DNA of 63,979 nucleotides, counting the filler, from Reclinomonas americana ATCC 50394 (lineage: Eukaryota), in assembly GCA_048213135.1 (NCBI GenBank). It is 5 parts of 4 records of this genome, joined end to end, with 100 filler letters (N's around TTAATTAATTAA, not from the genome) between each part and the next. Parts side by side here need not be neighbours in the genome. Positions count along the whole stretch, not along the records: positions 1 to 19,056 come from PS015307.1; positions 19,157 to 44,179 come from PS015308.1; positions 44,280 to 59,973 come from PS015308.1; positions 60,074 to 62,278 come from PS015310.1; positions 62,379 to 63,979 come from PS015316.1. The stretch is one strand, 5' to 3'. Every line of letters begins with the position of its first letter. The stretch's first letter is position 1. Under the pieces are notes generated by a model, which worked only from the letters and a program-made list of their open reading frames with translations, made no database searches and was not told where the DNA came from. A program made the position numbers and the translations under genes. This document shows positions 1,590 through 63,152 of the stretch, one piece after another.

Positions 1590-3098
1590 ATGATACGCAG
1601 AGTGTGTCTGCTTTTCGCGCTCCTGGCCTTTCTTGTGGCAATGGCCTCGTGCGTGGCCGAGGGGCGTCAAGCGACTCTGACGTACAAGCCTGTGAAGACT
1701 CTTCGCGGCCTCGACTTTTTCGACCCCGCCAACTTCAACTTTGACACGTTCAACGATCCCACCAATGGCTACGTGGACTACGTGAGCCGCGCGGAGGCCA
1801 TGTCGCTGGGCTTGACCTCGGTCGCCGCCAACGGCAATGCAGTCATTCGCGTCGAGTCGTCACAGGTGTGTGTGTGTGTGTGTGCGTGTGTGTGCTGCTA
1901 TAGTCCTCCACACGCGCTCTGGTGTGGCATGCAGCGCAGTGTGCGTTCGTGTTTCCTCCTTTTTTCCGCATGTTGGATGGCGATTGCTCGATTGGCCGGC
2001 TCTCTCATTTCTTCTCGCGCACTTTGCACAGATCCCTGTCAGCACTGCACGTGGGCGCAAGTCGGTGCGCATCAGCTCCACCGCTGTCTACAACTCCAAC
2101 ATGCTGTTCGTGTTGGATCTCGATCTTGCGCCCGCTGGCTGCGCGACGTGGCCGGCCTATTGGTTCCTCGGACCCAGCTGGCCCAACAATGGGGAGATCG
2201 ATGTCATTGAGGGCGTGAACACCATGAGCCGCGTGCAGACAACACTGCACACCAACAACGGGTGCACCATGGCCGGTGAGAGCCCGTCGCTGTTCACTGG
2301 GTCATGGGGCATCGGCACCAACAATCAGCCGGCCACCAACTGCTATATCTACGCCGCCAACCAATACCCGAATCAGGGGTGCGTGGCTGTAGGGAGGGAG
2401 AGGGAGAGGGCGTCATTGTGTCTCTGAAGTGAGGAGAAGCTGACACACTGGTGAGCAGGTGTGGCATTCTTGGAGCTAATAACTCGGTGAGCTCATCATG
2501 ATGCACCGTCTTGCGCCTGCGCTTCAGCGACACTCACCGATGCGTCTACACTATCTTGCCCCCCACCTCGCATGCAGTACGGACCAGGTTTCAACAGCAA
2601 CGGTGGCGGTATTTACGCCATGGCGTTCGAGGGCACCTCCATCCGCATGTGCGTTGTGCTTTCATCTTCAACACTGCAGCTGTCGTCTCACCGCCTTGTT
2701 GCTTGTGGTCCACAGGTGGTTCTGGCCGCGTGGCACTGCGCCTCCACCTGATGTACAATCGACAGCACCAAAGCCAGACACGTGGGGCACTCCGTACGCT
2801 TACTTCGCACTCGGCTCCCAGTGTGCGGCGCGTCACTTCAACAACCAGCAGCTGATCATCAAGTTGCGCATCGTGCTGCTTCTCTGCAGTATGCACACCT
2901 GCTCACTGACCTCGTCTATCTTCGTACAGTACGACTCTGTGCGGCGATTGGGCCGGCAACAGCTCAGCATGGAGCTCGAGCGGCTGTGCCGCGAAATTCC
3001 CGGACTACGCCACTTGCAACGACGTGGCACGCTTCCACCCAGAGATCTTTGCCGAGGCGTACTGGTCTATACGCTCGCTGGCAATGTACACAGCTTGA
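1590..3098 (+). CDS. Secreted GH16 endo-1,3(4)-beta-glucanase (laminarinase-like), copy 1; 6 exons (1590-1865, 2032-2378, 2459-2486, 2578-2648, 2716-2862, 2930-3098)
   Basis: Signal peptide MIRRVCLLFALLAFLVAMA. Motifs DPTNGYVDYV, RGRKSVRI, GCATWPAYW, catalytic GEIDVIEGVN, WFWPR, IINTTLCGDWAG and EAYWSI. All introns are GT-AG and in frame. Confidence 0.93.
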
Positions 3099-3305
3099 GT
3101 CCCTCGAGCTCCTGCATGCGCGGCTGATAAAACACCAATTTTGAAATCGTCAAGCCCTTGCATGCAAGAACAAGGCGCATTAGAGATCGCCGCACGTTTT
3201 CCGCTCTGTATAGTAGCACACAACCTGCAGTGCAACTCTAGCGTCGCGACTTCCACAGATCCGACTTCCACATACGAGACGGGACAACTCACACACATTC
3301 CGCCG

Positions 3306-4777
3306 ATGTCACGCAACGTGTGCCTGCTCATCGGCCTGTTGCTGCTGGCCGCCGCCGTGGCCCACCTCACAGAGGCACGCGCCTTGCCACCGACGCAGTC
3401 GTACAGGCTTCTGACAACCTACAGAGGAAGCGGCTTCTTCGCGGCCTCCAATTTCACGTTTGAGACCGAGAACGATCCCACCAACGGCTACGTGGACTAT
3501 GTGGGTCGCGACGAGGCACTGTCACGTCACCTGGCCGATGTGGATGCCTCCGGGAATGCCATTCTGCGCGTCGACACCTCGCAGGTGAATGCATTCATTC
3601 AATGCGTTTTCTTCCGATCGCCACCACTCACTGATTGTGCGTTTGCGTGTGCAGATCCCCAGCAACACGGCGCGTGGTCGCAAGTCTGTGCGCATCACCT
3701 CCACCACCGCCTACAATCCCAACACGCTGTTTGTGCTCGATCTGGACCACATGCCCACCGGGTGTGCGACGTGGCCGGCGTTTTGGCTCGTCGGCGACGA
3801 CTGGCCCAACAATGGCGAGATCGACATTATCGAGGGCGTCAACACGCAGTCGGTGGTGCAGACCACGTTGCACACCAACGACGGCTGCTCCATGGCCGGT
3901 CAAAGCTCGTCGTTGATGACGGGGCACTGGGCGCTCGGCACCAACAATCAGCCGGCCACCAACTGCTATGTGAACGCACCGAATCAGTTCGGCAACCAAG
4001 GGTGCGTGATTGGAGCTGCATCTCTTGCCACGTAGCAGGCGCGAGCTGACGCTGTGTTGTTCCCATCGAGGCACAGTTGCGGCATTGTTGGTGCCGATCA
4101 ATCGGTGCGTCGCAACTCTTGCTTCTTCTGCTTCTGATTCTTCTTGTTCTGCTTCGCCTTGTTGTTGCTGTCCTTCCCTTCCCCTTCCCCTTCCCCTCTC
4201 TCTCTCTCTCTCTCTCTCTCCTTCTCCTCCTCCTCTTCTCTTTCTTCTTCTTCTTCTTCTTCTTCTTCTTCTTCTTCTTCTTCTTCTTCTTGTCCTTACC
4301 AGCATTGTGTGACAATTCTCGCAGATGGGCTCTCCATTCAACAACCGCGGTGGTGGTGTGTATGCCACCGCCTTTGAGACATCGTCCATCCGTGTGTGGT
4401 TCTGGCCGCGTGGACAAGTGCCCAGCAACGTGCAGTCGGCCTCGCCCGACCCGAACACCTGGGGCGCCCCGTACGCCTACTTTACACTTGGTCCGCAGTG
4501 CCCGACAAAGCACTTTAACAACCTGCGCGTGGTCATCAAGTTGCGCGCACTTTTCGCTCGCCACCACCGCGTACTTCCTGTGCGCACCCCCCTCATATTT
4601 TTGTCCCCCGCGCTCAGCACCACTCTGTGCGGCGACTGGGCCGGCGCGGTGTGGGCCGCCAGCGGCTGCGCGCAAAAGTTCATGGAGCAGTCGTGCAGCG
4701 ACACCACCCGCTTCCACCCGGAGATCTTCACCGAGGCCTACTGGTCCCTGCGATCGCTGGCGGTGTACACGGCTTGA
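3306..4777 (+). CDS. Secreted GH16 endo-1,3(4)-beta-glucanase, tandem copy 2; 5 exons
   Basis: Signal peptide MSRNVCLLIGLLLLAAAVA. Motifs DPTNGYVDYV, GEIDIIEGVN, WFWPRG and INTTLCGDWAG. Ends YTA* like copy 1. Confidence 0.93.
4174..4291. repeat. Compound polypyrimidine microsatellite (TTCCCC)n-(CT)n-(CCT)n-(CTT)n in a GH16 intron
   Basis: Directly visible simple repeats. Confidence 0.9.
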
Positions 4778-4853
4778 GAGGTCGCCCTTGTGCATGAACG
4801 ACGGCAACGACGAAGCTGTCCGTCCTGCTGTTTTCCATTTTTCCTTGTTGTTT

Positions 4854-6089: not shown

Positions 6090-7572
6090 ATGCAAGCGCC
6101 GGCCATTCAGCTTGACGTGCTGGAGACGGTGCTTGGCGACAGTCGCCTGCACCTCCCTCCTCTTGAGCGCGACACCGGCAATGCCACCTCGTCGTCATCT
6201 CTGTCCGCGGGTGCGCGACCCTCAAAACGCTTTCCCACCGCCGCCTCTGCTGGAGCTTCTCCTGTGCCACTAATGGGCATCTCTCTGAGTCCACTCTCTG
6301 CGGGCGGCAGCGGCGACATGATCACGGTGATTTCACCGTCAGACCGAGATCGTGTGGGAAGGCGAGAGGCTGCTTCTGGTGCTCCTCCGCCTCGCAGACC
6401 AGCACGCTCAGGTACGCGCGTGCCTCTCCCTCTCTCTCTCTCACGCTCTCCACTCCACTCCTCTTGCTTTGTTCCATTCAACATTGATGGGCGAGTCGCG
6501 CAGTGTCGCCCATGGATCACTTGCGTTCGTTAATGGCTGCGGCGCCTTCATCATCCTCCGGCAAGATGCCACCGCGCAGTGAGCACACAAGTCCGCGGAA
6601 TGAGCGAGGTGCTGGTGGCGGTGGTGGTGGTGCGGTGGGTGGCAAGCCGGGAGCGCTGCGTTCAGGCCGAGTGGCGCCCATGCCGACGGCGATTGAAGAC
6701 GAAACGCGGGTTTCGTACCTCGTGTGCTGCTGGCAAAGTATATGGGTTTTTTTCTCACACTTGCTGGTTGGTGGGCAGTTTACGCTGGAGGCCGCGGCAC
6801 AGAAACTGGTGGTGGCACCGTCGATGGAGATGCATGGTCTGAGCGATCAGGACACGCGGGCAGTGGTGGACCGGCGTGCCTACTTGCGGTCGCTGCGCAC
6901 GATTGAAAGCGACGCCACCATGTCCTCCATGTATCTCGACGCACCTCGTCTGCCGCTGTCGCTGTCGTCGTCCGACTCGTCACGAGGGTCGTCGCCACGG
7001 CGGGCGGGTCAGCAGGGCGACGTGAAGATGATCAAGGGCGGCTACACGGCACACGCCGACGACCTCGGCATGCGGCTGTGGGAGCGTGTGGAGAAGCGCA
7101 AGAACGGCAACCTCCCGGCTCCCGGTGGCGTCGGCAAGTCTGCGCCTTCGCCGCCCACCGAATCGTCACTGTTGTTGCGTTGCGCCGTCCCCGTGTCGCC
7201 CGCATCACTGGAGGGAAGAACTAATATTGTTTGTGTTTACTCGCTGCAGTGCTGCTGCTGCTGCTCGACTGGCGCCAGTGGACGGCCCAGCAGGCTCGCC
7301 GACAGCGACCACGGAGGTCAGCCCTGTGGCCGGTCGTCGATCACGGACACGCTCACCGCAACCCATGCCGGTGGGTCGTCGATCGCCATCGTCCTCAACA
7401 ACAGCAGGAGCAACCGCGACGCAGCAGCAGCAACAACAACAACTGGTCCAGCCCGCCGGCTCATGTTGCGTTGCTCGACGTGCCGTGCGGTCGCCTGTTG
7501 CCGGTAGCTCACCTTTACTGCCTCTCCAGTGTATGCTGCTCGACGTGCCCCACTGGCTGAAGTCGACGAACG
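6090..7572 (+). CDS. Multi-exon Ser/Pro/Gly-rich protein of unknown function running into a gap; may be the N-terminus of the downstream WD40 gene
   Basis: ATG 6090. Phase-consistent introns with donors near 6412, 6711, 7174 and 7465 link open frames. No domain recognised. Confidence 0.5.
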
Positions 7573-9636: not shown

Positions 9637-9699
9637 GTTGCGTGAGCGGTTGCCTCTACTCTTTCCCCTTTGCTNNNNNNNNNNNNNNNNNNNNCTCAG

Positions 9700-10119: not shown

Positions 10120-10602
10120 CTAGATGAGTGCCTCACTTGCTACAAGGCCACCGGTCTTGGCGTCATTGGCCACCTCCCACACTTGCAGAGTTCCGTCAAA
10201 GTAGAGCACGTACAGCCGAGCGCACGTCTCCTTCAGCTCGCCGACGCCGTGAGCTGTGAGGACCTCCACAGCAAATCCTGCAGGCGCGTGTCAGTGCCAC
10301 GCACACTGTGGCGCCACAAGCACAAGAAGATCAGCTCTCACCCCACAGCGGAAGAAATGACGGCTCGATGACAAGAACGGGCACAAAGGCGTACGATGAG
10401 TCGGCACCGTCAACATCGTCGCGCACAATGCGAATCAAGTTGATGCGTGAGCTGCCGCCGGAGGCCACGTAAGCGACACGCACACACAGCATTTCCCCGA
10501 CAACACCACAAAAGGCACACCTGGCTTGCGAGGCCACGATTACCAGCGACAACTCGGGCACGTATTCCAGCAGTGAGAGTCGATCCAGCGCCACACACCA
10601 CT
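10120..10602 (-). CDS. CRT10-like WD40 protein, 3' exons on an inverted contig
   Basis: DRLSLLEYVPELSLVIVASQA...RLYVLYFDGTLQVWEV...ALI*. The phase matches the donor at 9637 (C|AG = Gln). Confidence 0.65.
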
Positions 10603-10712
10603 CTGCGCACCCACGCAGAGTGTTATGAACGNNNNNNNNNNNNNNNNNNNNATGCGCACACTGAGCACCACTGCCCAGAGGAGACTCACAGAGAGACATC
10701 GGTGCGACTTAC

Positions 10713-13700
10713 CAATGACAATCACAATCACAATGTCGAACCAGATGCGCGCACCAGCGTAGCCAAAGAAGGCCACCACGGCATTGCCGTCGGGATACAG
10801 CGTCGGTTGCTTCGTGTTCAACGACAAGTCCCTGAATTCGTTAACAATGATGGCCCGCAATCCGTACGCCACAAAATTGATCTGCAAATCGGCACACAAC
10901 GAGTAAGCCACTGCGCGAGAAGGTGGATGGTTGGTAAGTGGTCTCGAGAGACCTTTGGAATCCAACCTGTGACAGGAGAAAGCACGCGGAGGTGAGCATG
11001 CATTGAGTGGTGAATGAGAGCACACACACAAGTACATGAGCACGCAACTCAAGAACACCGGGACAGAGTCGCCGCCGACGTAGAATCCTGCACAAGCATG
11101 CGAGAGTGAGAGCGAGGCACACGAAGGAGAATGTGAAGCACAGCAGCCTCGCACCTGCAAAGAGCATGTGGAAAATCTACACCGAATCAAGACAGTACAA
11201 GGATGAGTGAGAAAGGAGCCGAAGCACAGCACTTGACGACCATGCAATGTCGACAAACCCAGAACAGCGGACTGTGGCACAACAACCAGTTGTCAGCATC
11301 CACCCATCGCCAATAGCATGAGAAAATTGCGACAAACAACACACCTCATAGCCAGCAGTGTTGCAGGATTGGGGAAGATGCCGACCTGCATAGCAGCGTG
11401 AGTCGCCACAAACACTTATGAACAGCGCACATGAAAAGCTCACCATAAGCACGCCAAGCGCGTACGACACCACGTAGAGAAGCAGGCAGATGCCGATCTG
11501 CAGCCACACGCGGTGAGACGAGTGCAGCACGGCGCGAGGAGCACTCTGACGGTCACGCAACAAAAATAAAGTAGCGACTGACTGGTTCGATGGTGTAGTT
11601 GACCATAAAGTACACAATGGTCCCGCTGTGCAGGAATGAGTGAGTGACACGAGGCCTGAAAACAAGCCTGGCGTACTGCACGAGCGACTCACCCCACAAT
11701 CGGATTCCATACAATGAGCGGCAATTCAACAGTCATCTTGGCGAGAATGTAAGGCACTGCAGCGCGTGGGGTTGAGACAAGATGCACACACCCACACATA
11801 TCGCTGTGGTTAGCAAAAACACTACGTACTTGATCCGTACAGCGCGCGTCCTCGATCGCGCAAGAAAATGTTGCGATCGGCGGGGAAGATGAACATGACA
11901 CTGACACTGCCAAAGATGGCGTAACCTGGGTGCACACACACACGCGTTCAGAGGGCAGTCGTGGCCAACAGACGAGCGAGCCCACAGAACACACCGACGA
12001 CGGTGAAGAAGAGCGAGCCGGTGCGGTTTTGTACATCGACCTCGTCGTAGCCTAGCCGCAGGAACACCAGACCGAGGCTGTGCAAAAGGCAAATGATTGA
12101 GCACGAGCCGGTGGTGATCTTCACAGCGCGAGTGCACGCAACAGCAGCGAGATGAACAGGTACTGCATGATTGTGCCCTTGAAGTGCAGTGGTTCACTGT
12201 GTGGGCGCGGAGATGAGACAATAGAGAAGTGAGGGAGAAAGGCGTAGGCGCATGCGCGACGCAACCGCCAAGCATCCAAGAAGCCGCGACGGACCAGAAT
12301 CGAGTACTGGTTGATGAAATTGGCGCGCGACTTTTTCAGCTTGTTGAGGTCCACCTCCTTCGGAGCTGGCGGTGCTTCCACGGAGCGCACATAGTATGGC
12401 GAATCGCGGAACGACTGGGCGAGCTGTCGCGCTGTGGATGTGGCATGCTCGAATTGATTTATCGGCATGTCGTCCAACTCGTTGTGCTGCTCGTGTCGAT
12501 GCTCGCCGTGGACCACCGCCATGAGGTACTCCACTGGGTTCTCGAGATCCGGCATTGGGTAGCCTGGTTTTATGGAGGGGGCAGCAGTGAGTGCGACAAA
12601 TGCAGAGGGGAGCTGCGAAAAGGGGAGGGGAATGGAGTACCGAGAGCGGCAAAGTAGTCTGCCACCTCTGGCTGCGGGCCGAAATACATGGTTTCACCGC
12701 GTGCCAGCAGCACGTAATTGTCGAAGAGCGAGAAAATGTCGGCACTCGGCTGGTGAATGGTGAGAACAATTGTGCCTGTAAGCGATAGATGAGGAACGGG
12801 CGCACGGCGGCGACAGCGGCGGCGGCGGAACACACGAAACGATTCTTGTGGCGCGCCAGCTGCTGCAGCGTCTCCACAATGCTGAGGGCGGTGAAGGAAT
12901 CGAGACCCTACATCGCACGGGGGGAGTGAGGGACGGGGGAGAATGTTCAGGAGCAGCAATCGTAGCTGACCGATGTCTGTTCATGATGGGGGAGGAACAG
13001 TAAGAAGAGTGAATGGAAACACGAGAATGGGGGGAGCGTCACGCAACAGGCTCATCCAAGAACACCAACGCCGGCTCCGACAACAGCTCCATGCCAATGG
13101 CACTGTGTTGAAGAGAGAGAAATCAGAGAAAAGTGCAGTACCATAGCCAGGTGGGGCGTGTGGCGCAACGCAACAGACGCTTGCGTTCACCACCAGAGAG
13201 ACCGCCCTGAATGCCACTGTTGGCTGCGTCCACTCCCACATAACTGCAGCGCAGTTGATTAATTCACACGTGCCACTGCGGCAACAAATAGCCATTAGCA
13301 ACGCACCCCGTCACTGTGTCGGCGCACGACTGCAAGCCGAGCTCCTCAATAATGCCGGCCACCTGCGATACATTCAGCGCCGAATCCACATCAGTGTGAG
13401 AAAATCGACTCGACGCAACTCGTTCCTCCTTCTCCTTTTTCGACACCGAGTCGGCGAGTTCGAGATCGGCCGCAAACCGCAGTGCCTCGCGTGGTGTCTG
13501 TGCACGAGCCAGTCAAGAGAAGGGACAACGCCGATAAGAGCGCTCGTGTGCGCACGCACCAGAGTGCCCATGAGCACGTCTTCCTGCGACACAAAGCCCG
13601 CCACACGATGCAACTCCGTCGGCGACACTTGCACACCGTTGAGGCGAATGGCGCCCGAAAGCTGGCCTGCACGATGACGACGACAAAAGTTTTTCAGGCC

Positions 13701-14282
13701 ACCGAATGACCACCGACACACTGATCAGCACCGACCTTTGCCTTCCAGCTGACCCGCCAGCACCTTCATCAGCGACGTCTTGCCTGTAGTGGAGTGTCAC
13801 CACACACAAGAAGAAAAACAAGCGCGAGTGTCTTGGGGGAAGAGCAAACTAACCTGCACCACTCGGTCCAGTAATGGCAGTGATCGTTCCCGGCTGACAC
13901 ACACCCGACACGTTGCGCAGAATGTACTTGGTGGGCTCCGCACTGCCCTCGGGCATCGGCACGCCCAAGCACACGTCTTCCCATTCCAACTGGCGAATGA
14001 ACGCATCGTCGTCATGATTGTGTCACAAAAGAGAATTTAGCGACCGGAGTCTTGTGTTACCTGCACACGCGCGACAGTGGCGCTGCTCATGAGGAAGCTC
14101 GAGGACATGCGACCGCGTGAGCTGCTGTGACGCATGAGTCGGCCACCCGAGGGCGTTCTCGCGACTGGCGTCACTTCTCCATCGCCACCAATGACAGCAA
14201 CAGGTCCACTGTGTGCGGGATCGCCCAGCTGCACAGGCTCCGGTGCGAAGCGCGTGTTGCGAGTCGAGTGCGTCGCAGCCAT
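10713..14282 (-). CDS. ABCG (White-like) half transporter with many introns
   Basis: Walker A GPSGAGKTSL, GFVSQED, signature LSGGERKRLAIGMEL, Walker B/D-loop VFLDEPTSGLDS, H-loop TIHQPS, then a TM domain (QNRTGSLFF, LFAGFYV, AIIVNEF). The start codon is inferred. Confidence 0.92.
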
Positions 14283-14683: not shown

Positions 14684-15612
14684 ATGGCGACCCGCGGACG
14701 TGCTGGTGCGACAGGCAACAAGTTCCGGTGAGTATATAGCGGCGTGTCTTGATGAACAGGGCAATGATGGAATCAGTGGGAGGAGGAAGAGAGGAAAGGG
14801 GGGAGTGCTGCTGCACATGAATGTCCAGTGAGACATGCGCCCCTCGCCTGCCCACCCACTGTCGTGTGCGTGTGTGCGTGTGTGTGTCTGTACAGAGTTG
14901 CTCTCGGTCTGCCAGTGGCTGCAGTCATGAACTGCGCCGGTGAGTGCATACTCTGTGTGTGTGCGCGCGTCTTGTAAGTGTGCATGTCGATCGCTCACGC
15001 CGCCTTTCCCTCTCTGTGTCTCTGTGTGCAGACAACACTGGTGCGCGCAACCTCTACATCATTGCCGTGAAGTGCATCAAGGGCCGCTTGAACCGCCTCC
15101 CGGCCGCCTCACCTGTTGCGTCCTTTCTCTCTCTCTCATGTGATTGATTCGTGTGCCAGAGCTACTCACTCACCACTCGCACGTGTGTGTTGCTGTGTTG
15201 CGTAGGGCGACATGATTGTGTGCTCGGTCAAGAAGGGCAAGCCCGATCTCCGTAAGAAGGGTGCGCTGGTTGTGCATGTCTCGAGAAGAGTGCGCCATGT
15301 GCTGCCACCCGCCCGCTCACTCTCTCCTCCTCAGTCATGTTGGGCGTGGTCATCCGCCAGCGCAAGTCGTGGCGCCGGTTCGACGGCACCACCATCTACT
15401 TTGAGGGTGCGTATGAAATCGCTTGCCTATGTCCTAGTCGTGTTGAGCAGAGTCATGACGTACCCTCCCCCGCTTCGTGTCACGCAGACAATGCTGGTGT
15501 GATTGTCAACAACAAGGGTGAGATGAAGGGGTCGGCCATCACTGGCCCGGTGGCGAAGGAGTGCGCCGAGATCTGGCCGCGTATCGCTGCCAACTCCAGC
15601 GCTGTCGTGTAA
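14684..15612 (+). CDS. RPL23: 60S ribosomal protein L23 (uL14); 6 exons
   Basis: [40 protein letters not shown]...[14 protein letters not shown]...[11 protein letters not shown]...[37 protein letters not shown]. Confidence 0.97.
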
Positions 15613-19056: not shown

Positions 19057-19100
19057 NNNNNNNNNNNNNNNNNNNNNNNNNNNNNNNNNNNNNNNNNNNN

Positions 19101-19112
19101 TTAATTAATTAA
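19101..19112. other. Artificial scaffold spacer TTAATTAATTAA in N-runs (also 44224-44235, 60018-60029, 62323-62334)
   Basis: The same six-frame stop 12-mer is flanked by N-runs at four sites. Confidence 0.95.
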
Positions 19113-19221
19113 NNNNNNNNNNNNNNNNNNNNNNNNNNNNNNNNNNNNNNNNNNNNGAAAAAAGCACAACGTGAGGACGGTGAAGAGAACGAGAGAGGGG
19201 GTCAATGCGACAGTCGACTCA

Positions 19222-33265: not shown

Positions 33266-33338
33266 TGCCTCCATTGAGATTTGAACTCAAGACCTCAACA
33301 TTACTAGTGTTGCGCTCTACCAACTGAGCTATAGAGGC
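33266..33338 (-). tRNA. tRNA-Thr(AGT)
   Basis: GCCTCTATAGCTCAGTTGGTAGAGCG-CAACA-CT AGT AA-TGTTG-AGGTC-TTGAGTTCAAATCTCAA-TGGAGGC-A. Cloverleaf followed by an oligo-T Pol III terminator. Confidence 0.96.
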
Positions 33339-39040: not shown

Positions 39041-39112
39041 CTCTCCCGCCGGGAATTGAACCCGGATCACCTGCGTGACAGGCAGATATCCTAACCATTA
39101 GACTACAGGAGA
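39041..39112 (-). tRNA. tRNA-Asp(GTC)
   Basis: TCTCCTGTAGTCTAATGGTTAGGATA-TCTGC-CT GTC AC-GCAGG-TGAT-CCGGGTTCAATTCCCGG-CGGGAGA-G, followed by T-runs. Confidence 0.96.
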
Positions 39113-40391: not shown

Positions 40392-43300
40392 TTGCCTCAA
40401 GATCCCGTCGGAAGTGGTGAGTGCGTGGGTCGACAAAACCCCTCCACCGGAGCGAGTACTAACTCACTGGTCCTACCCGAGTAGAATGCCTTGCGCCAGA
40501 GCGGTGCATTCTCGGCCACGGCCATGAAGAAGACCGTGGTGCAGGCGCTGGAGAAGGAGCTGGAGAAGGAGTTGCCGTCGACGCATCAGGCGTTCGCCGA
40601 GCGCATCTCCAAGCTCTTCATCAACCCCGACGCTGCCATTCTGAAGGACTTCCGCATGGAGAAGGACACGCTGCAGGCGGCGTATGAGCCCTCCATTCAG
40701 GTGTGCAGCAGTCGACGGTGACTTTTTTCTCCGCGACATTGCTGACACGAAAAGTCGTTGCACGCACACAGAGCGGCGTCGGCATCAAGTTGGCGTTGCG
40801 CGCGGAAAACTCCACTGCGCACATTCGCGATCGAGGTGCGATTGTGGTGTCGCTTGGCACGCAATACAAGGCCATGCACACTGCCGTGGCGCGCACGTTC
40901 CTGGTGCAGCCCAACGACGAAGTTTCGTGCGACACCCGTGACACCCTCGTTCTTGGGGGGCCACGCACTCACTGCTCGTGTGTGCAGACGCACAAGGCCG
41001 ATTACAACACGGCGTTCGAGCTCCAGGCTCATTTGGTCTCTTTTGTGCACCCTGGTATTACCGGGGCGGAGCTGTATGCCGAGGCGCGTCGGTGGGTTGG
41101 CGAGCGCAGCCCGGAGCGGCTGGCGGCTGTGTTCCCGGAGAGCATCGGGCACATTGTTGGCTGCGAAGAGCTCTTCAATCCGGCACACTTGCTGAATGCG
41201 CAGTGCGCAGTGGTGAGTTGTCGCCTGCCATCGTTATCCCTCTCCTTGTCGCTCAACGTACGTCGCGGTCACAGGAGCTCCAACTCGGTGTGGCCTTTGT
41301 GCTGGTGCTGGGCTTTGGGCCGCTGCAAGATTCGCGTCTTGGCGAGTATTCCATCATGATCGCCGACTCGTTCGTGCTGCGCGAGGAGCCGCAAACCTCG
41401 GCTGGGTACGTGGTCATGGATCTCACGGCGCGTCACAAGAAGACGTTTGACGACATCATGTACACCATGGTAACCGCGTGAGAGGGAGGGAGAATTGGGG
41501 GAAAGTCACCTGTTTACCCACCACTACCGCACGTGATGATGCAGGATGACGAGGATGAGGTGAAGCGCGAGGATGGCGTCGATGGCGACGAGGCCGACGA
41601 TGCTGAGCGCCGTGCGCTCAATGCAGCGCGGCGGACCGAGTTGGCCGAGTTGAATCGCCAGAAGCAGATCTCGGGCGATCGCGACGATGACGCGCGTGAG
41701 GGCACTCGCCGACGCGCACTGCGTGACCGCGACAGCTTTGCGGAAACAAAGCGCAAGGATAAGTTGGAGAAGCTGAAGAAGACCAAGCAGGAGGAGTGGG
41801 AGGCAGTGGGAAGGTGTGTCTGGGGGGTGTTTCTTCCCTTCTCGTGTGTCTCGTTGATGCTCATTCTCCGTCNNNNNNNNNNNNNNNNNNNNGAGCACTG
41901 ACCGGGAAGTACTTGCTCGCGGCCTGCGCCGGTGTGTTGAAGTTGATGCGCAGTGCGGCCCAGCGTCCATCATCCGAGAAACTCACGCTCTTGATGGTGG
42001 CCGCATGGAACGGCACATGAGTGCCACGGAACGGCAACAGCACGGTGAGGTTTGGCATGTCGGTTTCCACTCGAGTCGGCCGCAGCTCACGCGGAATCTG
42101 CGCGGCATTGTGTGTGTGTGGTGAGCAGCATGGCAACAACGACAACAATGCACATCCACCACACACCTTTGACGGGTGCACGTACGAGAACATGCGGTTG
42201 GCGTACAGCTGCTCAGCAATCGAGGCCACCTTGCGCTGCTCCTTGCCGGCACTTCGACTGGGCNNNNNNNNNNNNNNNNNNNNNNNNNNNNNNNNNNNNN
42301 NNNNNNNNNNNNNNNNNNNNNNNNNNNNNNNNNNNNNNNNNNNNNNNNNNNNNNNNNNNNNNNNNNNNNNNNNNNNNNNNNNNNNNNNNNNNNNNNNNNN
42401 NNNNNNNNNNNNNNNNNNNNNNNNNNNNNNNNNNNNNNNNNNNNNNNNNNNNNNNNNNNNNNNNNNNNNNNNNNNNNNNNNNNNNNNNNNNNNNNNNNNN
42501 NNNNNNNNNNNNNNNNNNNNNNNNNNNNNNNNNNNNNNNNNNNNNNNNNNNNNNNNNNNNNNNNNNNNNNNNNNNNNNNNNNNNNNNNNNNNNNNNNNNN
42601 NNNNNNNNNNNNNNNNNNNNNNNNNNNNNNNNNNNNNNNNNNNNNNNNNNNNNNNNNNNNNNNNNNNNNNNNNNTTTTCCTCGCTCTCACGCCCGCATGT
42701 TGTCGCTTCTCTTGCGCTGATGCATGCATACTGTTGCAGGCCACGGCAAGCCCGACCTCCGTGTTCATCAAGGAACTCACCTTCCGCGGCGAGAAGGCGC
42801 ACTTTGAGAAGATCAACCGTGATGTTCGCGATATGCTGACGCAGCTGCGCCAGCGCGACAAGGAGATGCAGGAAATGGTGAGCGCATGTGTGGTTTTTCT
42901 CCCTGTCTTCTGTCGCACAAGTTGGAGGCATGACCGAATATGTTGCGGGTGCGTTTGTGCGTGTTAGGCGGATGTGGTGGAGCAACCGGAGTTGGTTGTT
43001 GATCGACGTTGCGTTGGCGGTCATGCATAACTGTCACTTCCTGTTCCAGTCTCTCACTCTCGCTGCTGCTGCGCAGGCAATCCCATCGTGCTGCGCAACG
43101 TCAATGCGACACCGATGCCGACCAGCAAGAAGCGCCAGGGCAAGACCAAGAATGTGGGTTATCTGGAGGCGCACACAAACGGCTACCGCTACATGGTCAA
43201 CAATGAGTCTGTCGGTGCGTACAGCCTATGTTGGGGGTTTTGGTGGCTGCTGGACTCACCTGCCCTGCAGACATCATGTACCAGAACATCAAGCACGGCT

Positions 43301-44179
43301 TCCTGTCGCCGTCGGACTCGCACACCAAGACGCTGCAGCGCACCTCCAAAGTACTTTTGCACTTCAACTTGAAGGACCCCATCATGGTCGGCAAGACCAA
43401 GGCGTTGGACATTCAGGTGTACGCCGATGTGATGGTTGAGGACTCGCTCGGTACGCGAACTCTGGCTGCGTTTGGGTGATCACGTTGGGTGTTGCTCACA
43501 ATGCCGTGCACGCAGCCAATGAGCGGCGCATGAGTGATGCCACTGCCATGGAGGAAGAAGAGCGTGAAATCAAGAATCGGCGGCAGGTGCTCAAGTTGTT
43601 CCAGACTTTTGCCGAGAAATCCGAGCAGCGTATCAAGGCTGTGGTGAGTGCCCGCCGATGCGAATGCCTCTTTATCACACACACACGTGCATGACGTGCT
43701 TTGTGTTGTCGGCTCACACAGAATCCCGGCTTTGCCTTCGAATCACCGTTCCACGATCTCGAATTCGTCGGCGCCGTCAAGGGCTCCATGTCGCACCTTG
43801 CTCCCACCACCAACTGTTTGGTGTCGCTGCAGGAGAGTCCCTTCTTTGTGCTCTCGATCGATGATGTCGAGCTGGCGTCGCTCGAGCGTGTTGTGGTACG
43901 TTATCGCAAGCGCCACACAAGAACTCGCGTGTGCCTTCACTCACGTGCTTGCTGCAGACCGGGCAAAAAACATTTGATATCGTGTACGTGTTGAAGGATT
44001 ACACCAAGGATCCCGTGCGAATCGATTCAGTCCCCATGTCGCGTATCGATGACATCAAGAACATTCTCTTGTGCGTGCGTTTTCCGCGTCTCCATCCATC
44101 GTCATCCTTTCTGTTGCTGACAGCACGTACGTGGGTGTGCCTGTGTGCTCTTGCGCTCTGCAGGGGTCTTGGTATGGTC
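40392..44179 (+). CDS. SPT16: FACT subunit SPT16, main body, truncated; segment 41893-42263 is on the opposite strand
   Basis: AYEPSIQSG, IVVSLGTQYK..VARTFLVQP, YSIMIADSF, VFIKELTFR, GYLEAHTNGYRY, DIMYQNIKHGF, LLHFNLKDPIMVGKTKALDIQVY, PTTNCLVSLQESPFFVLSIDDVELASLERV and KTFDIVYVLKDY. Confidence 0.92.
41893..42263 (-). CDS. SPT16: SPT16 internal exons on an inverted contig
   Basis: TVLLPFRGTHVPFHAATIKSVSFSDDGRWAALRINFNTP corresponds to the SPT16 motif VILPI.G..VPFHI.TIKN.S.....YLRINF. Confidence 0.85.
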
Positions 44180-44279
44180 NNNNNNNNNNNNNNNNNNNNN
44201 NNNNNNNNNNNNNNNNNNNNNNNTTAATTAATTAANNNNNNNNNNNNNNNNNNNNNNNNNNNNNNNNNNNNNNNNNNNN

Positions 44280-45812
44280 TGTCTCTCTCCTCCCCAACTG
44301 CAGCAGCGGCATCGCAGCCACAGCTGCGTCCGCGCCAAACAACTGCGCGTGTGCAGCATCCGTCGCAGCCGCTGACTCAAACCTCGCTGGCGTGTCACCA
44401 ATCGACGGGGTCACCGAGTCGGCTGGCGCCGGCGAGAACATCTCAAACGTGTCGCTGCTCGCAAAGTTGACAGTGGACGAAACCGCAGATGGTCGATGAG
44501 CCAGCGGGCGCTGTGGGTGATCGTGGTATTGCTGCTGCAACGAGGAGGTGGCGGTGGACTGCTGCTGTTGATGCAAGAGTTGATGTTGATGTTGCTGTTG
44601 AGATGTGCGCATGGAGGAGAGGGATGACGCCGACTTGACCGTGTGCATCTGCGGTAGCATGTGCGCGGCAATGTCGTCGTCAAAGCCGCCCTCCATGGTT
44701 GCATCGGCGCTGACCGAGTGTTGCAACTCGTCGTCTCGCCGCATGTAGCCCAGCATCGATGCCGCCGCGGCGGATTCAGCAATCTCCATCGACAGCAACG
44801 GCGGTGAGGGCGAATGCCCAGGTGCGTAGTACGGCTTGAGGCCGGCGGCGGTGACTGCTGGCATGGCGGCCATGGTGACCGGGTCCATTGCCGCAGACGC
44901 AGCGGCGGCCCCAGCAGCTGCGGCGGCCGACAACGAGGCAGTCGACATGGTTATCCCCGGTTGCTCAAAGAACATGGCATTCAGCAAACTGTGAGTCGAA
45001 TCCGAGGCCGGAAACGGCGTGGCCGGTTCGACTTGAGTCTGTTTAGCGCGTGCACCAAAGAGTGAGTGTCTGGAAACGACGCTCATGCCGAGACAGGGAC
45101 ACGAGACGCAACCGCCGTGTCGTCGTCGCTGTCGTCTTGTGCAGGCATGGGTGGCTCGGCACGGTTCCAATTCGCGCGCAGGAAGAGCACATACGAGTTC
45201 GCATGTGCGACCTCCTCGTCAGCGGCCAGCGACGACATTAGTGGCACAGTCGCCGAGAAGTCCTCCGCCTCCTCGGTCGTATCCGGAGGGAGCGGTATCC
45301 TGCTGGGCGACAAGACCTCCTGCGGTGCAGCAGCAGCAGCAGCAGCAGTGGTGTCTACTTGATCGTCCACGGCACTTGGTGTTGGGTCTGCTAATGGCGC
45401 GGCGCCGTCGGTCCATGCGAGGGCCGGTGTCGGCCGCACAATCGGTGGCAACATGATCGTGTGTCCCGATCGCGGCACATTGAGGCCCAGCGGCGACCCG
45501 CTCAGCGAGAACACTCCAGGCGCCACAGCCGAAGGCGGCGGCGGTGGTGGTGGCGACGACCGCGATGGCGACCGTGCTTCGAGCGCACCTCTCAATTCGA
45601 ACGTATTTGCCGAATGGCCACCAGCCGACGTTACATCATCGTCATCTTCGTCGTTCTGATTCATCACATGGCTCGGTGCATACGGAACCCCGCGCACGGG
45701 TGAGAGGAAAGGCTCATGCTCCTCCTGGCAGTGGAGGGAGAGAGAAAAGCATGCATAAGCAGTCACATTGCAATATCTGGGGTCACGAGGAACCACTGAC
45801 CTCTTCTTCCAT
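44280..45812 (-). CDS. Ala/Ser/Pro/Gln-rich protein of unknown function, truncated at the scaffold end
   Basis: Probable start ATG GAA GAA GAG|GTCAGT. Long open frames are joined by phase-0 introns. Confidence 0.5.
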
Positions 45813-46072: not shown

Positions 46073-48586
46073 ATGGAGGTCGACTCGGATGCTGGCGTCT
46101 CCATCATTGTTGCACAAGGTGAGATGATGGACAGCAGTGCGCGCGTGTATGTGTGCATGTGCGTGTGTGCGTGTGTCTCGCTATGTATGCCTGCATGTAC
46201 GAGAGAGAAGGAGGGAGGGAAGGCTGCGTGTGGGAGGCAAAGGCGTCGCACATGAGCATTGTGCACACGCTCACACCCACACACACGCTCTGTTGTCAGC
46301 GGCACTTGCGATGCTTCATGTGAACGGCGAGTGCAGTGAGAGCACACACACAATGAGAGAGAGAGAGAGACAGGCGAGTGACAAAGAGTGGGGGCGAGAC
46401 AAGAAAGAGATGGCCATGGCGCGAAACGCTCACTCTCTCACCATCACACAGAGGTGCTCGATGCGGTGTTGCTGATTGATCGCGGTCTGCTGGAGATGGA
46501 CGTGCGACACGTGGCGCGTGCACTGCGCGCGTTGGTGTCGCTGCGCTCGCGAATGTCGGGTCTGACTCTGCGCGAGGCCATTCAGCGTGTGGTCACACAG
46601 CAGGTGTGCACGGCGAATCGCACCTCTCTCTCCCTCTCTCCCTCTCTCTTCTCATGTAATGTGACTTACTCACACCTCATATGCACTGGTCGTCAGGCGG
46701 CTCCTGTGGTGTACGATCTGGTCGATCAGTGTGTCGGCATTCTGGCCACCAAGCCGGCGGTGAGTGCCAGCGATGCCTGTCGAAGAAGGATGTGCGCTCA
46801 TACGTGCGTGTTGTTAGGTGTGGGCTCCTCCGCAAACACCGTCGTCGGTTGCCGGCACGCCGCTGGCTCGCACGCCAGGCCGTGGCGACTTTTCGGCATT
46901 CAAAGACCCGAAGCCCAAGGCTCCGTCGGGTGGTGCCTCGTCGTCTGGTGCCTCGGGTTCGGCCGCCGCCGGTGACAAGAAGAAGGGCGGTGAGGACAAG
47001 GAGAAGGCGGCGGCAGAGGAGGAGGCGGAGAAGCCGGCAGTGCTCGACGCCAAGGGCAAGTTCCCGCGCCCTCGTGACCACATTGAGCCGGAGCTGGAGC
47101 TCTTCTTCCGGCTACTGGCCACTATTTTACTGATCGACGACCAGCAGTTGCCGCAGGTGTGTGTGCATTGGCGAAAGAAGGAGGAGATCAAGGGAGACAT
47201 GGTGGTTGATGTATGAGTGTGTGTGTGTGTGTGTGTGTCAGGCATTGTTGGCTGCCGAAGACAATGTGCGGTTTGTCGCCGACCACGAGCGCCACACGAT
47301 GGATCCGTTTGCGGCGCGCGCCTACTTCTACCTGTCACGGTGCCACGAGTTGCAGCACACCCTGGACTCGATTCGCGGGTGCGTTTCTTTCCATACACCT
47401 TGCACTTTTCTTCGGTGGTGTGACTGACGCCGCTGCGTAGCGTGTTGCAAGTGGCTTTCCGCACGGCTTGCCTGCGACGCGACGAGTACCGCCAGACGAC
47501 GTTGGCCAATCTGATCCTGCGCAACTTCCTGCACTACAACCTGTACGAGCAGGCCGACCAGTTCCAGGCTCTCTGCAAGTTCCCGTCCGACACGCGCATC
47601 CCGAACGAGCTGGCTCGCTTCCACTACTACAATGGCCGCATCAAGGCCATTCAGTTGGACTACGTCAATGCGTTTGATCACCTGGCGATTGCCATTCGCA
47701 AGGCGCCGACGCGCGCCGCGAGTGGCTTCCGCTCGCAAGTGACCAAGCTCAGCTGCGTCGTGCAAATGTTGATGGGCGAGATCCCCGAGCGCTCCATCTT
47801 CAGACAAAAGGATCTGGCTGCTCACCTCAGGCCCTACCTGCACCTGACGCAGGTGAGTGCTTGCATATGTGTGTGTGCGTTTCTTGGCAGATTTTGTTTG
47901 TTTGTTGTTCACTCGCTGGTTAGGCTGTGCGCGTTGGTGAGCTGTCGGGCTTTGCGACTGTGGTGAAAAAGTACTTTGAGCTGTTCCGGCGTGACAACAC
48001 CCTGACGCTGATTCAGCGCTTGACCACCAATGTGATCAAGACCGGTCTGCGCCGCATCAACCTGGCATACTCGCGCATCTCACTGGAGGATGTGCGTCGC
48101 AAGCTGGCGCTGGACTCTGTCGAGGCTGCGGAGGGCATTGTCGCCAAGGTGTGCGCGGTGTGCATGATCAGCTGCTGCTCGGTGACCGTGTGGCGCTCAT
48201 CCTCTGTTGTTGTGTGTTTCTGCAGGCCATTGGCGACGGTGTGATCGATGCCACCATTGACCACGAGCAGGGCTGGATGCAGAGTCGCGAGATTACTGAT
48301 GTGTACGTCACCGACGAGCCACACCAGGCCTTCCACAAGCGCACTCAGTACTGCCTCGACATTCACAACTCGGCCGTGAAGGTGACGCGACGTGTGTGTA
48401 TCGAGTTTTTGCTGACTGCCGACGTTGACCTCGTCTCCCTCTGCGACTGCTGCACAGGCCATGCGCTTCCCGCCTGACGCACACTCGAAGATCGTGGCCG
48501 ACTCGGAGAGCGAACGCCGCGCCCGCGATCTGGAGGAGCAGGAGATGCTGGAGATGGACGACGAGGAGGACGACGACCTCCCGTAA
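46073..48586 (+). CDS. PSMD3: 26S proteasome lid subunit RPN3
   Basis: RTACLRRDEYRQTTLANLILRNFLHYNLYEQADQF, NELARFHYYNGRIKAIQLDY, LMGEIPERSIF, NVIKTGLRRINLAYSRISL, IVAKAIGDGVIDA and [27 protein letters not shown]. The first exon is uncertain. Confidence 0.95.
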
Positions 48587-59973: not shown

Positions 59974-60092
59974 NNNNNNNNNNNNNNNNNNNNNNNNNNN
60001 NNNNNNNNNNNNNNNNNTTAATTAATTAANNNNNNNNNNNNNNNNNNNNNNNNNNNNNNNNNNNNNNNNNNNNCACACACACACATCACAGC

Positions 60093-60305
60093 AACATCAC
60101 ATGGAGTGCACCCTCTCGCTTCTCCTCCAGGCTCTCCACCACTGTTCTCGTTGCCGTTCCCATGCCCTCTCTGCAGCTGTCTGCCTTTCTCTCTCCCTCA
60201 CACAACACACAGCACACACACACACAGCATAACATCACATGGCGTGCACCCTCTCGCTTCTCCTCCAGGCTCCCCACCACTGTTCTCGTTGCCGTTCCCA
60301 GCCCA
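60093..60305. repeat. Tandem repeat with 138-bp period; a third, inverted partial copy at ~61300-61357
   Basis: AACATCACATGG(A/C)GTGCACCCTCTCGCTTCTCCTCCAGGCTC.CCACCACTGTTCTCGTTGCCGTTCCCA starts at both 60093 and 60231. Confidence 0.85.
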
Positions 60306-61390: not shown

Positions 61391-62270
61391 ACCTCCCGCC
61401 GTGACTGGCCATGGTCGACAGGCCGGCCCCTGGGCGTTCGGCTTGCAGACGGCAAGGCGGCTGACACACTGCTGCTGCGCCGTCTGCTCCGCTTCAGCGG
61501 TGGCACGGCCAGCTGCAGCTGGCCGCTTGCCGCTGCCGTGGCACCGCCGGCCGATTGTCTCGAGGTGGGCCTCGTCGCCACTAGCACTGTTGGTGCGGCC
61601 ACCGACTGCGAACGTGAGCGAGTACGTCTGACCTCCGCGCGTGTCACGATCACGGTTGGCGCATCTGAAGCCGCCGCTTCTTCTGTTGGTGATGTCGACT
61701 TCGGTGGCTCGTGGACACTCTGAAGGCAACAGAAAAGGCGCATCAGCAACAGTGACAAGCGACCCAAGACGCAATGCATGAAATACCTCGCTGCCGCTGG
61801 CGGCGCTGTCGGCTGCGGCACTGGCGGTACTGGCGGCACTGGCGACCGCTTGTGGCCGAAAGAGGCTGTACATTATCTTCGGCTCCAGCAAAGAATATAC
61901 TGAATCCTTGCCTCGAACAGCGAGAGTAGCCGCGTGGAGAAGGTTGGAAAGCATCTGCAAATGGACACAAATGCAATGCAGATGAGAAAAGGCAGCGTGA
62001 ACACCGTGTGCACTGCAGTGCGCAGTGCGCAACTTGAAGCTGTCCATGCAGCACCAGAAGTTGGTGCTCCTTCACGCGCCACACAGACACCGGCACCTCC
62101 GCATTCGGCTGCTCGATATCGCCGTTTCGGTCCGATTGCGCTCGCCGATTCTGCTTTGAGTGGATTTTCTTGCAGATCCTGTTGTAAACAGGCTTGTTTA
62201 ACAAGGCGGCTCCCGGACCTGTGTGTCTGGATGATCTCACACACGCGCTACACACATGAACTTCGAGTGA
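61391..62270 (-). CDS. Internal exons of an unidentified protein
   Basis: Open frames with GT-AG introns (…IEQPNAE|…LVLHGQLQ|MLSNLLHAATLAVRGK…SGSE|…). Confidence 0.4.
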
Positions 62271-62419
62271 GCAGCTCANNNNNNNNNNNNNNNNNNNNNN
62301 NNNNNNNNNNNNNNNNNNNNNNTTAATTAATTAANNNNNNNNNNNNNNNNNNNNNNNNNNNNNNNNNNNNNNNNNNNNGAAGCACAACAACAGAGAATGG
62401 AGAGACGCAAGCACACAAC

Positions 62420-63152
62420 TGTTCCAGTCGCCACCACCAAAGCGCTCCGGATCGCGCATACCCTGCACATCCACCAGCAGCTCGTCGTTCTTGTCCAGAA
62501 TGACCTGCGTGGCGAGCTCGACTGGCGTCACCACGCGCTGCATAATTGTAAAGTGAGTCGACAAGCTCACTGGCACGGAATTCGCAGTCGCCACAACACA
62601 CACCGGTGTGGATCCCACAATCTCTGTTCTCCGCTGCAGAGTCGGCAGGGCGTCCTTGACCTCGTAGAACACCAGGTGCTTGAACAGGTACTGCGTGGCG
62701 AAGACGCATGAGCGCCAACACAGCTGCGCATGATTGTCAACAAAAAAAAAACAGACAAACCTGCATGTCATTCTTCGGCTCCACTCCGCGCGGAATGTCC
62801 ATCACCACGCGCGAGAACACAAACACCGCCACCTCGTTGTGCTCGCGGTACTGCAGCACACGCGTCGAGAACGTCTCGTCGTACTTGGGAGTGCGCTTCT
62901 GCAGCAACACGTCGCGCGAGGAGGCATGCACTTTTTGGATTTGAATGTCTGTGCATTGTTCGTGTGAGCAACGTCACCACGGGGGAGGATCACAAAAACC
63001 CACACGCAACATTGGCCATCGCTGTGTCTCAACTCGTCCGTGACCACATCCTTTGGTGACATGATTTCGGCGTTCGGGAACTTGGTGGTGATGCGGCGCT
63101 GGAACTCGGTTGGGCTCTCCAATTCGGCGCCGCGGTAGATGAACTCGCGGTT
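62420..63152 (-). CDS. DOCK-family Rac/Cdc42 GEF, DHR2 exons (fragment)
   Basis: NREFIYRGAELESPTEFQRRITTKFPNAEIM...DGQ-YIQIQKV...FVFSR...LPTLQRRTEIV...TPVELATQVILDKNDEL. Confidence 0.85.

Follow-up and report, generated by a model that had tools for sequence, protein, structure and literature searches.

Why should the very short introns of one protist genome open with two donor words, GTGCGT and GTTGCGT, that differ by an extra T, and what decides which of them is used? The question is raised by a stretch of 63,979 nucleotides from Reclinomonas americana ATCC 50394 (GenBank assembly GCA_048213135.1), joined from five parts of four records and called the window below. All results concern this one 64-kb window, which includes 8052 N in 27 gaps and has a GC content of ~55% outside them. 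It is gene-dense, and its genes are broken up by very short GT-AG introns; among the predicted introns the median length is 69 nt, the branch is CTCAC or CTGAC and the acceptor is CAG. Donors that fit GT..G[TC] were classed as unshifted (U), and donors that fit GTT..G[TC] but not the U pattern as shifted (S). We write -1 for the last exon base, H for a base other than G at that position, and a slash for the exon-intron boundary. The window holds two donor classes whose introns have a common body and tail and whose cut lies before GT, and class is linked to the last exon base: U donors mostly follow G, whereas S donors rarely do.

Both words are in excess. GTTGCGT occurs 33 times against 13.87 expected (sd 3.74), a count reached by 0 of 100 shuffles, and GTGCGT occurs 114 times against 67.4 expected, which no shuffle reaches. 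The base before the 33 GTTGCGT matches is A in 9, C in 7, G in 3 and T in 14. An initial annotation of this DNA, which had about 29 of 32 shifted donors following A, C or T, was therefore right, since 30 of the 33 matches are preceded by a base other than G. Twenty-seven of the 33 matches are predicted donors; those at 3317, 8985, 15197, 27222, 28713 and 34761 are not. The matches that follow G are these:

12265, GTTGCGT after G
27222, GTTGCGT after G, not predicted as a donor
45112, GTTGCGT after G

The exceptions named in the annotation were 6711, 12265 and 45112. The last two stand as GTTGCGT after G, and 6711 corresponds to a GTTTCGT donor at 6710, also after G; the non-donor at 27222 belongs beside them.

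Introns were gathered in several sets, none of which was scored with exon bases. Our gene finder scored donors with a two-component matrix restricted to intron positions +1 to +9, scored branch and acceptor with a matrix each, added a term for length and a weak codon model, and chained in-frame exons by the Viterbi algorithm; codon-usage coding potential in the window is itself weak, at about 0.2 bit per codon. It over-predicts, returning 165 introns in 36 genes; the gene-model set comprises the 150 introns in genes scoring >30. For the signal-only set genes were ignored and the non-overlapping GT..AG candidates with the best signal scores were kept; a threshold of >=24 yields 101 of them, where block-shuffled sequence yields 8.0. 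Of the 101, 13 GT-repeat donors and 6 unclassified donors were left aside. A third set consists of junctions checked against homologues. The association between class and last exon base is strong in every set built, and the statistics are firm for this window; the counts of donors with G at -1 are as follows:

Signal-only set, score >=24: U 28/50, S 3/32, p=1.8e-5
Signal-only set, score >=26: U 21/27, S 3/22, p=9.5e-6
Gene-model set, 150 introns: U 59/90, S 3/33, p=1.1e-8
Exact words used as donors: GTGCGT 19/39, GTTGCGT 2/27, p=0.0004
Homology-checked junctions: non-S 15/17, S 1/13, p=1.7e-5

The 27 unclassified donors of the gene-model set have G at -1 in 12 cases, and GTGCGT matches that are not used as donors are preceded by G in 14 of 75, which is the background level. 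Seen from the exon, S donors make up 3 of 62 S and U donors after G, 13 of 23 after A, 12 of 25 after T and 5 of 13 after C, so that S is used at 5% of G-ending sites against 38-57% of sites ending in A, T or C. The S class as a whole accounts for ~22-32% of predicted introns (33/150 in the gene-model set, 32/101 in the signal-only set). A table of -1 base against donor class, which the initial annotation had proposed as a check, thus gives a strong association in the window on both predicted and homology-checked introns. Its statement that unshifted donors almost all follow G was overdrawn: the share is 66% in the gene-model set, 71% (40/56) in a stricter set and 88% among checked junctions. 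U donors without G at -1 include two checked cases (11829 after A, 48394 after T) and 16-31 predicted ones, and the six or seven exceptions that had been listed omitted the checked donor at 48394 as well as the predicted donors at 58635 and 45861.

The association also outlives a filter demanding that read-through of the intron hit a stop (U 38/60, S 2/15, p=0.0009). That filter, which was dropped as a criterion, cost the gene-model set 18 of its 33 S introns and 30 of its 90 U introns, those in which read-through (intron plus 90 nt) meets no in-frame stop. The S donor word is stop-free in all frames, which may partly account for S introns that are read through without stops. A classifier built on the intron tail (branch, acceptor and length, with the donor omitted) proved uninformative, because in DNA so dense in introns even a random GT often lies within 300 nt of a real acceptor; its null reached 17.8 bits at the 95th percentile, and only 8 of 32 GTTGCGT sites passed.

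Where is an intron that opens with GTTGCGT cut? Thirteen S junctions are collinear with homologues: 11 are gapless, the one at 12840 has a one-residue gap beside it, and the one at 40922 was placed by Pfam profile coordinates. A cut one base later would break the frame at every checked S junction. On these alignments the cut lies before the GT of GTTGCGT, in agreement with what the initial annotation had held. Among the best named protein matches of the window are euglenid casein kinases, at 90% identity, and the clearest gene for this purpose encodes casein kinase 1 (CK1). Residues 1-312 of its spliced product align to P0013, the highest-scoring among the CK1 matches listed, with no gap, and the product also aligns to four other CK1s. 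P0013 has 336 residues on a contig of 1295 nt and so derives from a spliced transcript of a close relative. By themselves these matches, with the kinetoplastid match of an RPL23 exon given below, would point to a probably euglenozoan-like protist.

23486 to 24903, plus strand, CK1 gene, by homology alignment
23556 to 23562, plus strand, S donor T/GTTGCGT of CK1, phase 1, 66-nt intron; gapless across residue 23 to P0013 and euglenid CK1s
24574 to 24580, plus strand, S donor T/GTTGCGT of CK1, phase 0; gapless across residue 289 (YQMDY/VFDW) to P0013, P0014, P0015, P0016 and P0039
24690 to 24696, plus strand, S donor T/GTTGCGT of CK1, phase 0; gapless across residue 298 to P0013 and others
23745 (G/GTGAGAC) and 24205 (G/GTGCGTT), plus strand, checked non-S donors of CK1, by homology alignment

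The second gene encodes an ABCG half-transporter with at least 25 introns in 3.8 kb. Two gene models (g9 and g8) proved to be one gene, joined at residue 259 of the homologue P0203, and the product was aligned to P0203 across seven S and nine U junctions. P0203 was recovered by a full HMMER search; a word-index protein search had given one weak match for the ABCG exon and no match for a Rubicon-like exon, and an ESM Atlas search with one low-complexity exon gave no usable match.

10120 to 13956, minus strand, ABCG half-transporter gene, by alignment to P0203
13413 to 13419, minus strand, S donor A/GTTGCGT; gapless to P0203
13168 to 13174, minus strand, S donor T/GTTGCGT; gapless across ERKRL/AIGMELL to P0203
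13041 to 13047, minus strand, S donor T/GTTGCGT with a 71-nt intron and then a 6-nt exon, by P0203 alignment
12971 to 12976, minus strand, 6-nt micro-exon ACATCG (Thr-Ser of the conserved DEPTSGLD motif), then donor G/GTCAGCT at 12970
12834 to 12840, minus strand, probable S-variant donor C/GTTTCGT; one-residue gap against P0203 beside the junction, in a variable loop
12259 to 12265, minus strand, S donor after G (G/GTTGCGT), a real exception; gapless across DAWRE/PLHFKG to P0203
12136 to 12142, minus strand, S donor T/GTTGCGT; gapless to P0203
11555 to 11561, minus strand, S donor T/GTTGCGT; gapless across RYFIF/IGICLL to P0203
11042 to 11048, minus strand, S donor A/GTTGCGT with an 82-nt intron and then a 14-nt exon, from the corrected model against P0203
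10966-10953, minus strand, 14-nt exon, then donor G/GTCTCTC at 10952
13559, 13306, 11994, 11692, 11443, 11344, 11258, 11154, 12970 and 10952, minus strand, checked non-S donors after G, by P0203 alignment
11829, minus strand, checked non-S donor after A, by P0203 alignment

Homology exposed errors of the gene finder in the Walker A region of this gene, at two merged introns, and at the first two introns of the gene for ribosomal protein L23 (RPL23). Two gaps in the ABCG alignment fell exactly at S introns where the finder had merged two introns. With the exon 12976-12971 added, the product reads FLDEPTSGLDSF and a two-residue gap against P0203 is gone; with the 14-nt exon added, it reads VPVFLSWIPKINFVAYG against IPVYFTWIRYINFVSYG in P0203 and a five-residue gap is removed. 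These 6-nt and 14-nt exons are each flanked by introns of 63-82 nt.

Further junctions were placed by structure chains and by a per-exon Pfam scan that took in 128 exons. One RPL23 exon is best matched by kinetoplastid ribosome chains. The upstream 27-residue exon has its residues 1-25 aligned to residues 20-44 of PDB chain 6gz3_AV and ends at chain residue 46 by extension, and the downstream exon begins at residue 47; since residues 46 and 47 are adjacent, the two exons abut at the S intron that starts at 15115. In the SPT16 gene, the gap between profile matches at 40922 is accounted for by unaligned exon ends.

15115 to 15121, plus strand, S donor T/GTTGCGT of RPL23 (uL14), 91-nt intron, by PDB chain 6gz3_AV
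15407 to 15412, plus strand, U donor G/GTGCGT of RPL23; flanking exons match Pfam Ribosomal_L14 60-80 and 82-122
40922 to 40928, plus strand, S-variant donor A/GTTTCGT in the N-terminal (M24-like) domain of SPT16; Pfam Peptidase_M24 65-102 and 107-161
43896 to 43901, plus strand, U donor G/GTACGT of SPT16; Pfam Rttp106-like_middle 8-45 then 48-80
47379 to 47384, plus strand, U donor G/GTGCGT of the proteasome subunit Rpn3/PSMD3; Pfam TPR_PSMD3_N 129-170 then 173-306
48394 to 48399, plus strand, U donor without G at -1 (T/GTGTGT) of Rpn3; Pfam Rpn3_C 1-29 then 29-66

Beyond the donor, the two classes look alike. Median intron length is 69 nt in both; CTCAC is the commonest branch 5-mer in both (among S introns CTCAC 15, CTGAC 4 and CTCAT 4), with ~19 nt from branch to acceptor; position -3 of the acceptor is C in 62 of 69 U and 29 of 32 S introns; and most multi-intron genes contain both classes. 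The donor words themselves differ in strictness. The 32 S donors comprise GTTGCGT (23), GTTGCGC (4), GTTTCGT (4) and GTTGAGT (1), so that 23 of 32 have the exact consensus against 14 of 49 U donors with G at -1 (p=0.0002), which are very diverse. This greater strictness is what would be expected if the S donor carried one internal mismatch. The fifth intron base is C in 31 of 32 S donors, whereas the corresponding U position is C, A or T, a hint that C is genuinely base-paired by the reader at this position. A U1 5' end of human type would leave that C unpaired, and the 5' end of this organism's U1 may differ from the human one.

The uniformity of the S word would also suit a historical account, in which S introns stem from a copying element or insertion mechanism that brought GTTGCGT with it and landed at sites without G, and transposon-like 'introners' are known in other protists, as described in PMC3879977. 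In local alignments, however, S interiors are no more alike than U interiors (S-S mean 7.52, maximum 14; U-U mean 7.62, maximum 20; p=0.43), so the S introns are not a repeat family; their lengths and tails are the same, and in two old tandem paralogues an S donor has been kept at one and the same position (2863, 4540). We regard this account as very improbable. Two candidate identities were rejected in addition: introner-like repeated introns, as S-S similarity is no higher than that of U-U or S-U pairs, and introns of the U12-type (minor spliceosome), which have the donor RTATCCTT and the branch TCCTTAAC, against GTTGCGT donors and branches as in U introns here.

Does the extra T matter for the exon, or is GTTGCGT just a stronger word? 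At equal intron-side strength, perfect GTGCGT donors have G at -1 in 14 of 23 cases and perfect GTTGCGT donors in 2 of 23 (p=0.0004). Because the perfect unshifted word still prefers the G and the perfect shifted word does not, the extra T appears to take the last exon base out of the recognised word. These counts bear on the view that nothing is shifted and that GTTGCGT simply signals very strongly from the intron side to a protein, U6 or U5, within an ordinary trade-off between exon and intron. Exon-side versus intron-side trade-offs at 5' splice sites are well known; Burge and Karlin are said to have described a dependence decomposition of donor sites, and work by Carmel in 2004 reportedly dealt with trade-offs likewise. 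Such a view fits the degenerate donors GTGCGA, GTGAGA, GTGAAT, GTCAGC and GTCTCT, which mostly follow G, and the avoidance of C at -1 in both classes. Intron-side strength alone is nevertheless insufficient, as perfect GTGCGT retains a G preference that perfect GTTGCGT does not have, and U donors with H at -1 are not significantly nearer consensus than those with G (9/20 against 14/49, p=0.26). We consider it decidedly unlikely.

The last base of S exons looks unconstrained as to G. Its frequency of 3/33 does not differ significantly from the 16% of G found before any GTT in the window (p=0.2). At phase-0 junctions, G at -1 was compared with the expectation from synonymous usage: S introns have 2 against 2.9 (n=12), whereas U introns have 26 against 19.5 (n=33, p=0.005). 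The bases other than G are similar across classes (S: A 13, C 5, T 12; U: A 10, C 8, T 13). Against the same synonymous usage, C is avoided at phase-0 exon ends in both classes (U 0 against 6.1 expected, S 1 against 4.9). Twenty-one of the 33 S introns lie in phase 1 or 2, and 4 of the 12 in phase 0 follow F, D, Y or I codons, which have no synonym ending in G. It is plausible, then, that coding constraint lies behind S sites and that S introns sit where a G is hard to have. This supports the part of the initial annotation's proposal in which coding sequence denies the exonic G; as to the part in which the intron compensates, the S exon end looks unconstrained rather than compensated for. Its suggestion of a route to 1-nt intron sliding finds no support, as a change from G/GTGCGT to /GTTGCGT would move the cut and the frame by one base, and the AG acceptor presumably could not follow.

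How might one machinery read both words? One 5' splice-site reader, presumably U1, may pair the word G-[G/T]-U-G-C-G-U in a single register while the cut is made at the word's GU, an explanation to which we give somewhat less than an even chance. The reader would presumably be the U1 small nuclear RNA (snRNA) with its 5' end, pairing a seven-base word in one register, and later spliceosome components would cut at whichever GU the word holds. In G/GUGCGU the first G of the word would be the last exon base; in /GUUGCGU it would be the first intron base, leaving the last exon base outside the word and free to vary. Where the exon ends in G, the unshifted form would match at seven of seven positions and should dominate. 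Where the protein sequence sets an exon-final A, T or C, both forms would match at six of seven and should occur at similar rates, which would account for the near-tie of S and U at such sites. Set against the window's own word GGTGCGT, GTTGCGT agrees at 3 of 7 positions as it stands, and a slide of one base raises this to 6 of 7. On this account U1 would be the reader and would pair in the shifted register; a mismatch at the U facing the usual partner of +1 would be tolerated, or else a variant U1 would match that U.

A bulge would be another way to accommodate the extra base. The G at +1 and the U at +2 would pair as usual, one U (+2 or +3) would bulge out, and GCGU would pair one step further on; the last exon base would then still face the same U1 cytosine as in ordinary donors. 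Tan et al. 2016 (PMC4856993) give this register as proven at human sites whose +2 and +3 are both U, and put the predicted sites at 68; a bulge would also preserve the central +1 and +2 pairs, described as the most important for human U1 in PMC6280755. By definition, every S donor has U in these two positions and the rest of the consensus one base further down, and for the three S donors that follow G the best human-U1 duplex with G/GUUGCGU combines a canonical 5' part with a shifted 3' part (3/3). But if -1 faced the usual cytosine, G should help S donors as it helps U donors, and it is seen in 1 of 13 checked and 3 of 33 predicted S donors against 14 of 23 perfect GTGCGT donors; the missing preference fits a one-base register shift and not a bulged-U register. 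A bulge would, moreover, add a penalty and bring no gain over H/GTGCGT, leaving the abundance of S at sites without G unexplained. We judge a bulge quite improbable.

Several points weigh against the single shifted register as well. Pairing energies per register, which the initial annotation had also proposed to compute, give the shift no advantage. With the 5' end of human U1, the mean nearest-neighbour duplex energy is -0.98 kcal/mol for S donors with H at -1 against -3.78 kcal/mol for the corresponding U donors, and with the kinetoplastid U1 consensus it is -4.12 against -5.67 kcal/mol. The +1 G takes part in the shifted register in the best structures of only 4 of 29 (human) and 6 of 29 (kinetoplastid) of these S donors; for model donors with A at -1, duplex prediction does give the shifted register. 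S is the weakest donor class with either U1 5' end, from which the organism's own may differ, and is never predicted to beat H/GTGCGT, so pairing strength alone leaves its share of about half at sites without G unexplained. The shifted register contains a central mismatch of a kind that is costly for human U1: mismatches at +1 and +2 strongly impair its duplex, according to Kondo 2015 as cited in PMC6280755. A pure shift predicts that G should be as frequent at -1 of S donors as at -2 of U donors, and it is rarer (3/33 against 26/90, p=0.03). Most of the introns are predictions from a gene finder with demonstrable errors, and an Rfam scan of the window, which returned only two tRNA genes, found no U1 gene or snRNA. 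The initial annotation had placed the intron's first G where the exonic -1 G normally sits; the lack of a G preference at equal donor strength agrees with that placement, and the duplex energies do not favour it. Its premise that U1 needs that G-C pair was too strong, as the checked U donors without it at 11829 and 48394 are real.

A variant U1 with a base that matches the extra U would remove the objections from energy and mismatch. Taken further, this becomes an account with two readers, in which GUUGCGU has its full complement in the 5' end of a second U1 snRNA, or in another factor, and S donors form a dedicated class. It would explain why S is as common as U at sites without G though predicted to be weaker with known U1s, and a tight separate match would fit an S word that is near-invariant (23/32 exact, C at the fifth position in 31/32) beside a varied U word; U1 5' ends also vary in Euglenozoa, the group that gives the best named protein matches. 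All other intron features, however, are common to both classes, which are mixed within genes, and a single base change in U1 would suffice, which makes this a sub-case of the register shift and not a true alternative. As a distinct explanation we think it unlikely, if worth keeping in view. Returning to the single shifted register, the protist may use one-base-shifted reading as a routine major class, perhaps with an adapted U1 5' end or a second U1, covering about a quarter of all introns and roughly half of those without an exon-final G; we put this forward as a doubtful but real possibility.

Other S donors of the window are predicted from gene models, signal scores or both, those at 43008, 31397 and 17288 belonging to the signal-only set only:

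45106 to 45112, minus strand, predicted S donor after G (G/GTTGCGT), from the gene model and a signal score of 31.8 only
6710 to 6716, plus strand, predicted S-variant donor after G (G/GTTTCGT), from the gene model and a signal score of 28.0 only
2863, 4540, 7174, 7465, 9375, 9495 and 9637, plus strand, predicted S donors, from gene models and/or the signal-only set
26901, 27106, 43008, 51567, 55284 and 59622, plus strand, predicted S donors, from gene models and/or the signal-only set
16680, 17288, 19887, 31397 and 33908, minus strand, predicted S donors, from gene models and/or the signal-only set
34823, 36385, 36838, 62033 and 63010, minus strand, predicted S donors, from gene models and/or the signal-only set

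The donor at 43008, in the SPT16 gene, has the strongest S-type signal in the window (score 33.9). It falls within a 189-nt model intron at 42888-43076 (plus strand), and the donors at 42888 and 43008, 120 nt apart, have the acceptor in common. Two tandem paralogues, weakly GH16-like, at 1641-3098 and 3306-4777 (both plus strand) agree in four intron positions, among them that of the S donor A/GTTGCGC (2863 in one, 4540 in the other); the first copy is interrupted once more, at 2649 (T/GTGCGT). In the RPL23 gene (14835-15612, plus strand) the finder mis-called the first two introns, and GCCG/GTGAGTGC near 14940, after G, is probably the real donor, judging from the human protein. Two tRNA genes lie among the protein-coding genes:

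33266-33338, minus strand, tRNA gene
39041-39112, minus strand, tRNA gene

Paired gaps of 44 N, 12 bases apart, occur at 19057-19156, 44180-44279, 59974-60073 and 62279-62378. The 12 bases were read at 59974-60073, where they are TTAATTAATTAA; these are probably artificial six-frame-stop linkers introduced by scaffolding and not biology.

What would such a donor class mean? An apparent rule is that S is used where the protein sequence disallows an exon-final G. If this holds genome-wide, gene finders for the lineage would need the rule, as S donors are mis-scored by our finder and by any other that relies on a consensus; the genome would offer hundreds or thousands of natural test cases for the coupling of U1 binding to the cleavage site; and a direct prediction on the 5' end or ends of the organism's U1 would follow. 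Were shifted reading a routine class, the positions of U1 binding and of the cut would be systematically uncoupled, for the first time in any organism, and the protist would lend itself naturally to finding out what sets the cleavage site.

Known systems resemble this one in parts. Among the papers listed by full-text search, which does not reach figure logos or supplements, none was seen to describe donors of a GTTGCGT (GUUGCGU) class. Mamiellophyceae have AG/GTGCGT donors (PMC3879977, PMC2483917), hence the same unusual unshifted word, GTGCGT(G), and a CTGAC-type branch. The accessible text of those papers reports no GTTGCGT class, and their introns are few, or long outside the outlier chromosome; Mamiellophyceae are also green algae, whereas the best named protein matches of the window are euglenids. 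Euglenozoa show that a U1 5' end, and the donor consensus with it, may depart from the human form and even come in two versions within one species: the kinetoplastid U1 5' end is given as AACUCACCUGCA (PMC11613528), and one diplonemid is described as having two U1 genes with different 5' ends (PMC12621601). Diplonemids, however, use (G)/GTATG and kinetoplastids are nearly intronless, and neither paper, in its accessible text, describes classes like S and U. The 'left-handed' and 'right-handed' 5' splice-site classes of LUC7 (bioRxiv 10.1101/2022.12.07.519539) are similar, as far as that preprint's available text goes, in that sites without G at -1 lean on the intron side and degenerate intron sides go with G at -1; here, in contrast, there is a discrete one-base insertion, and the -1 G preference is abolished at equal intron-side strength.

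The closest likenesses are human. The shifted register itself is known there from a few weak sites only. As Tan et al. 2016 (PMC4856993) present the work of Roca and Krainer (2009), this register is proven for human U1, all of whose pairs move one position downstream at sites that have the consensus with an extra base after GU; +1 G replaces -1 G, the cut stays before GU and the last exon base is freed, as we propose here. The human +2/+3 bulge (Roca et al. 2012, in the account of PMC4856993) likewise has U at +2 and +3 and the downstream consensus displaced by one base, but its -1 faces the same U1 base, so that G should be favoured, whereas S donors have no G preference. The same source puts all validated non-canonical U1 registers together at 1.5% of human sites, against ~22-32% of predicted introns here, with a near-invariant word. 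Non-canonical U1 registers are thus already known and their use as a major class is what would be new, with the register and mechanism as we infer them: in humans, out-of-register donors are rare oddities that were proved one by one, while in this protist they are apparently a standard option of the splicing code.

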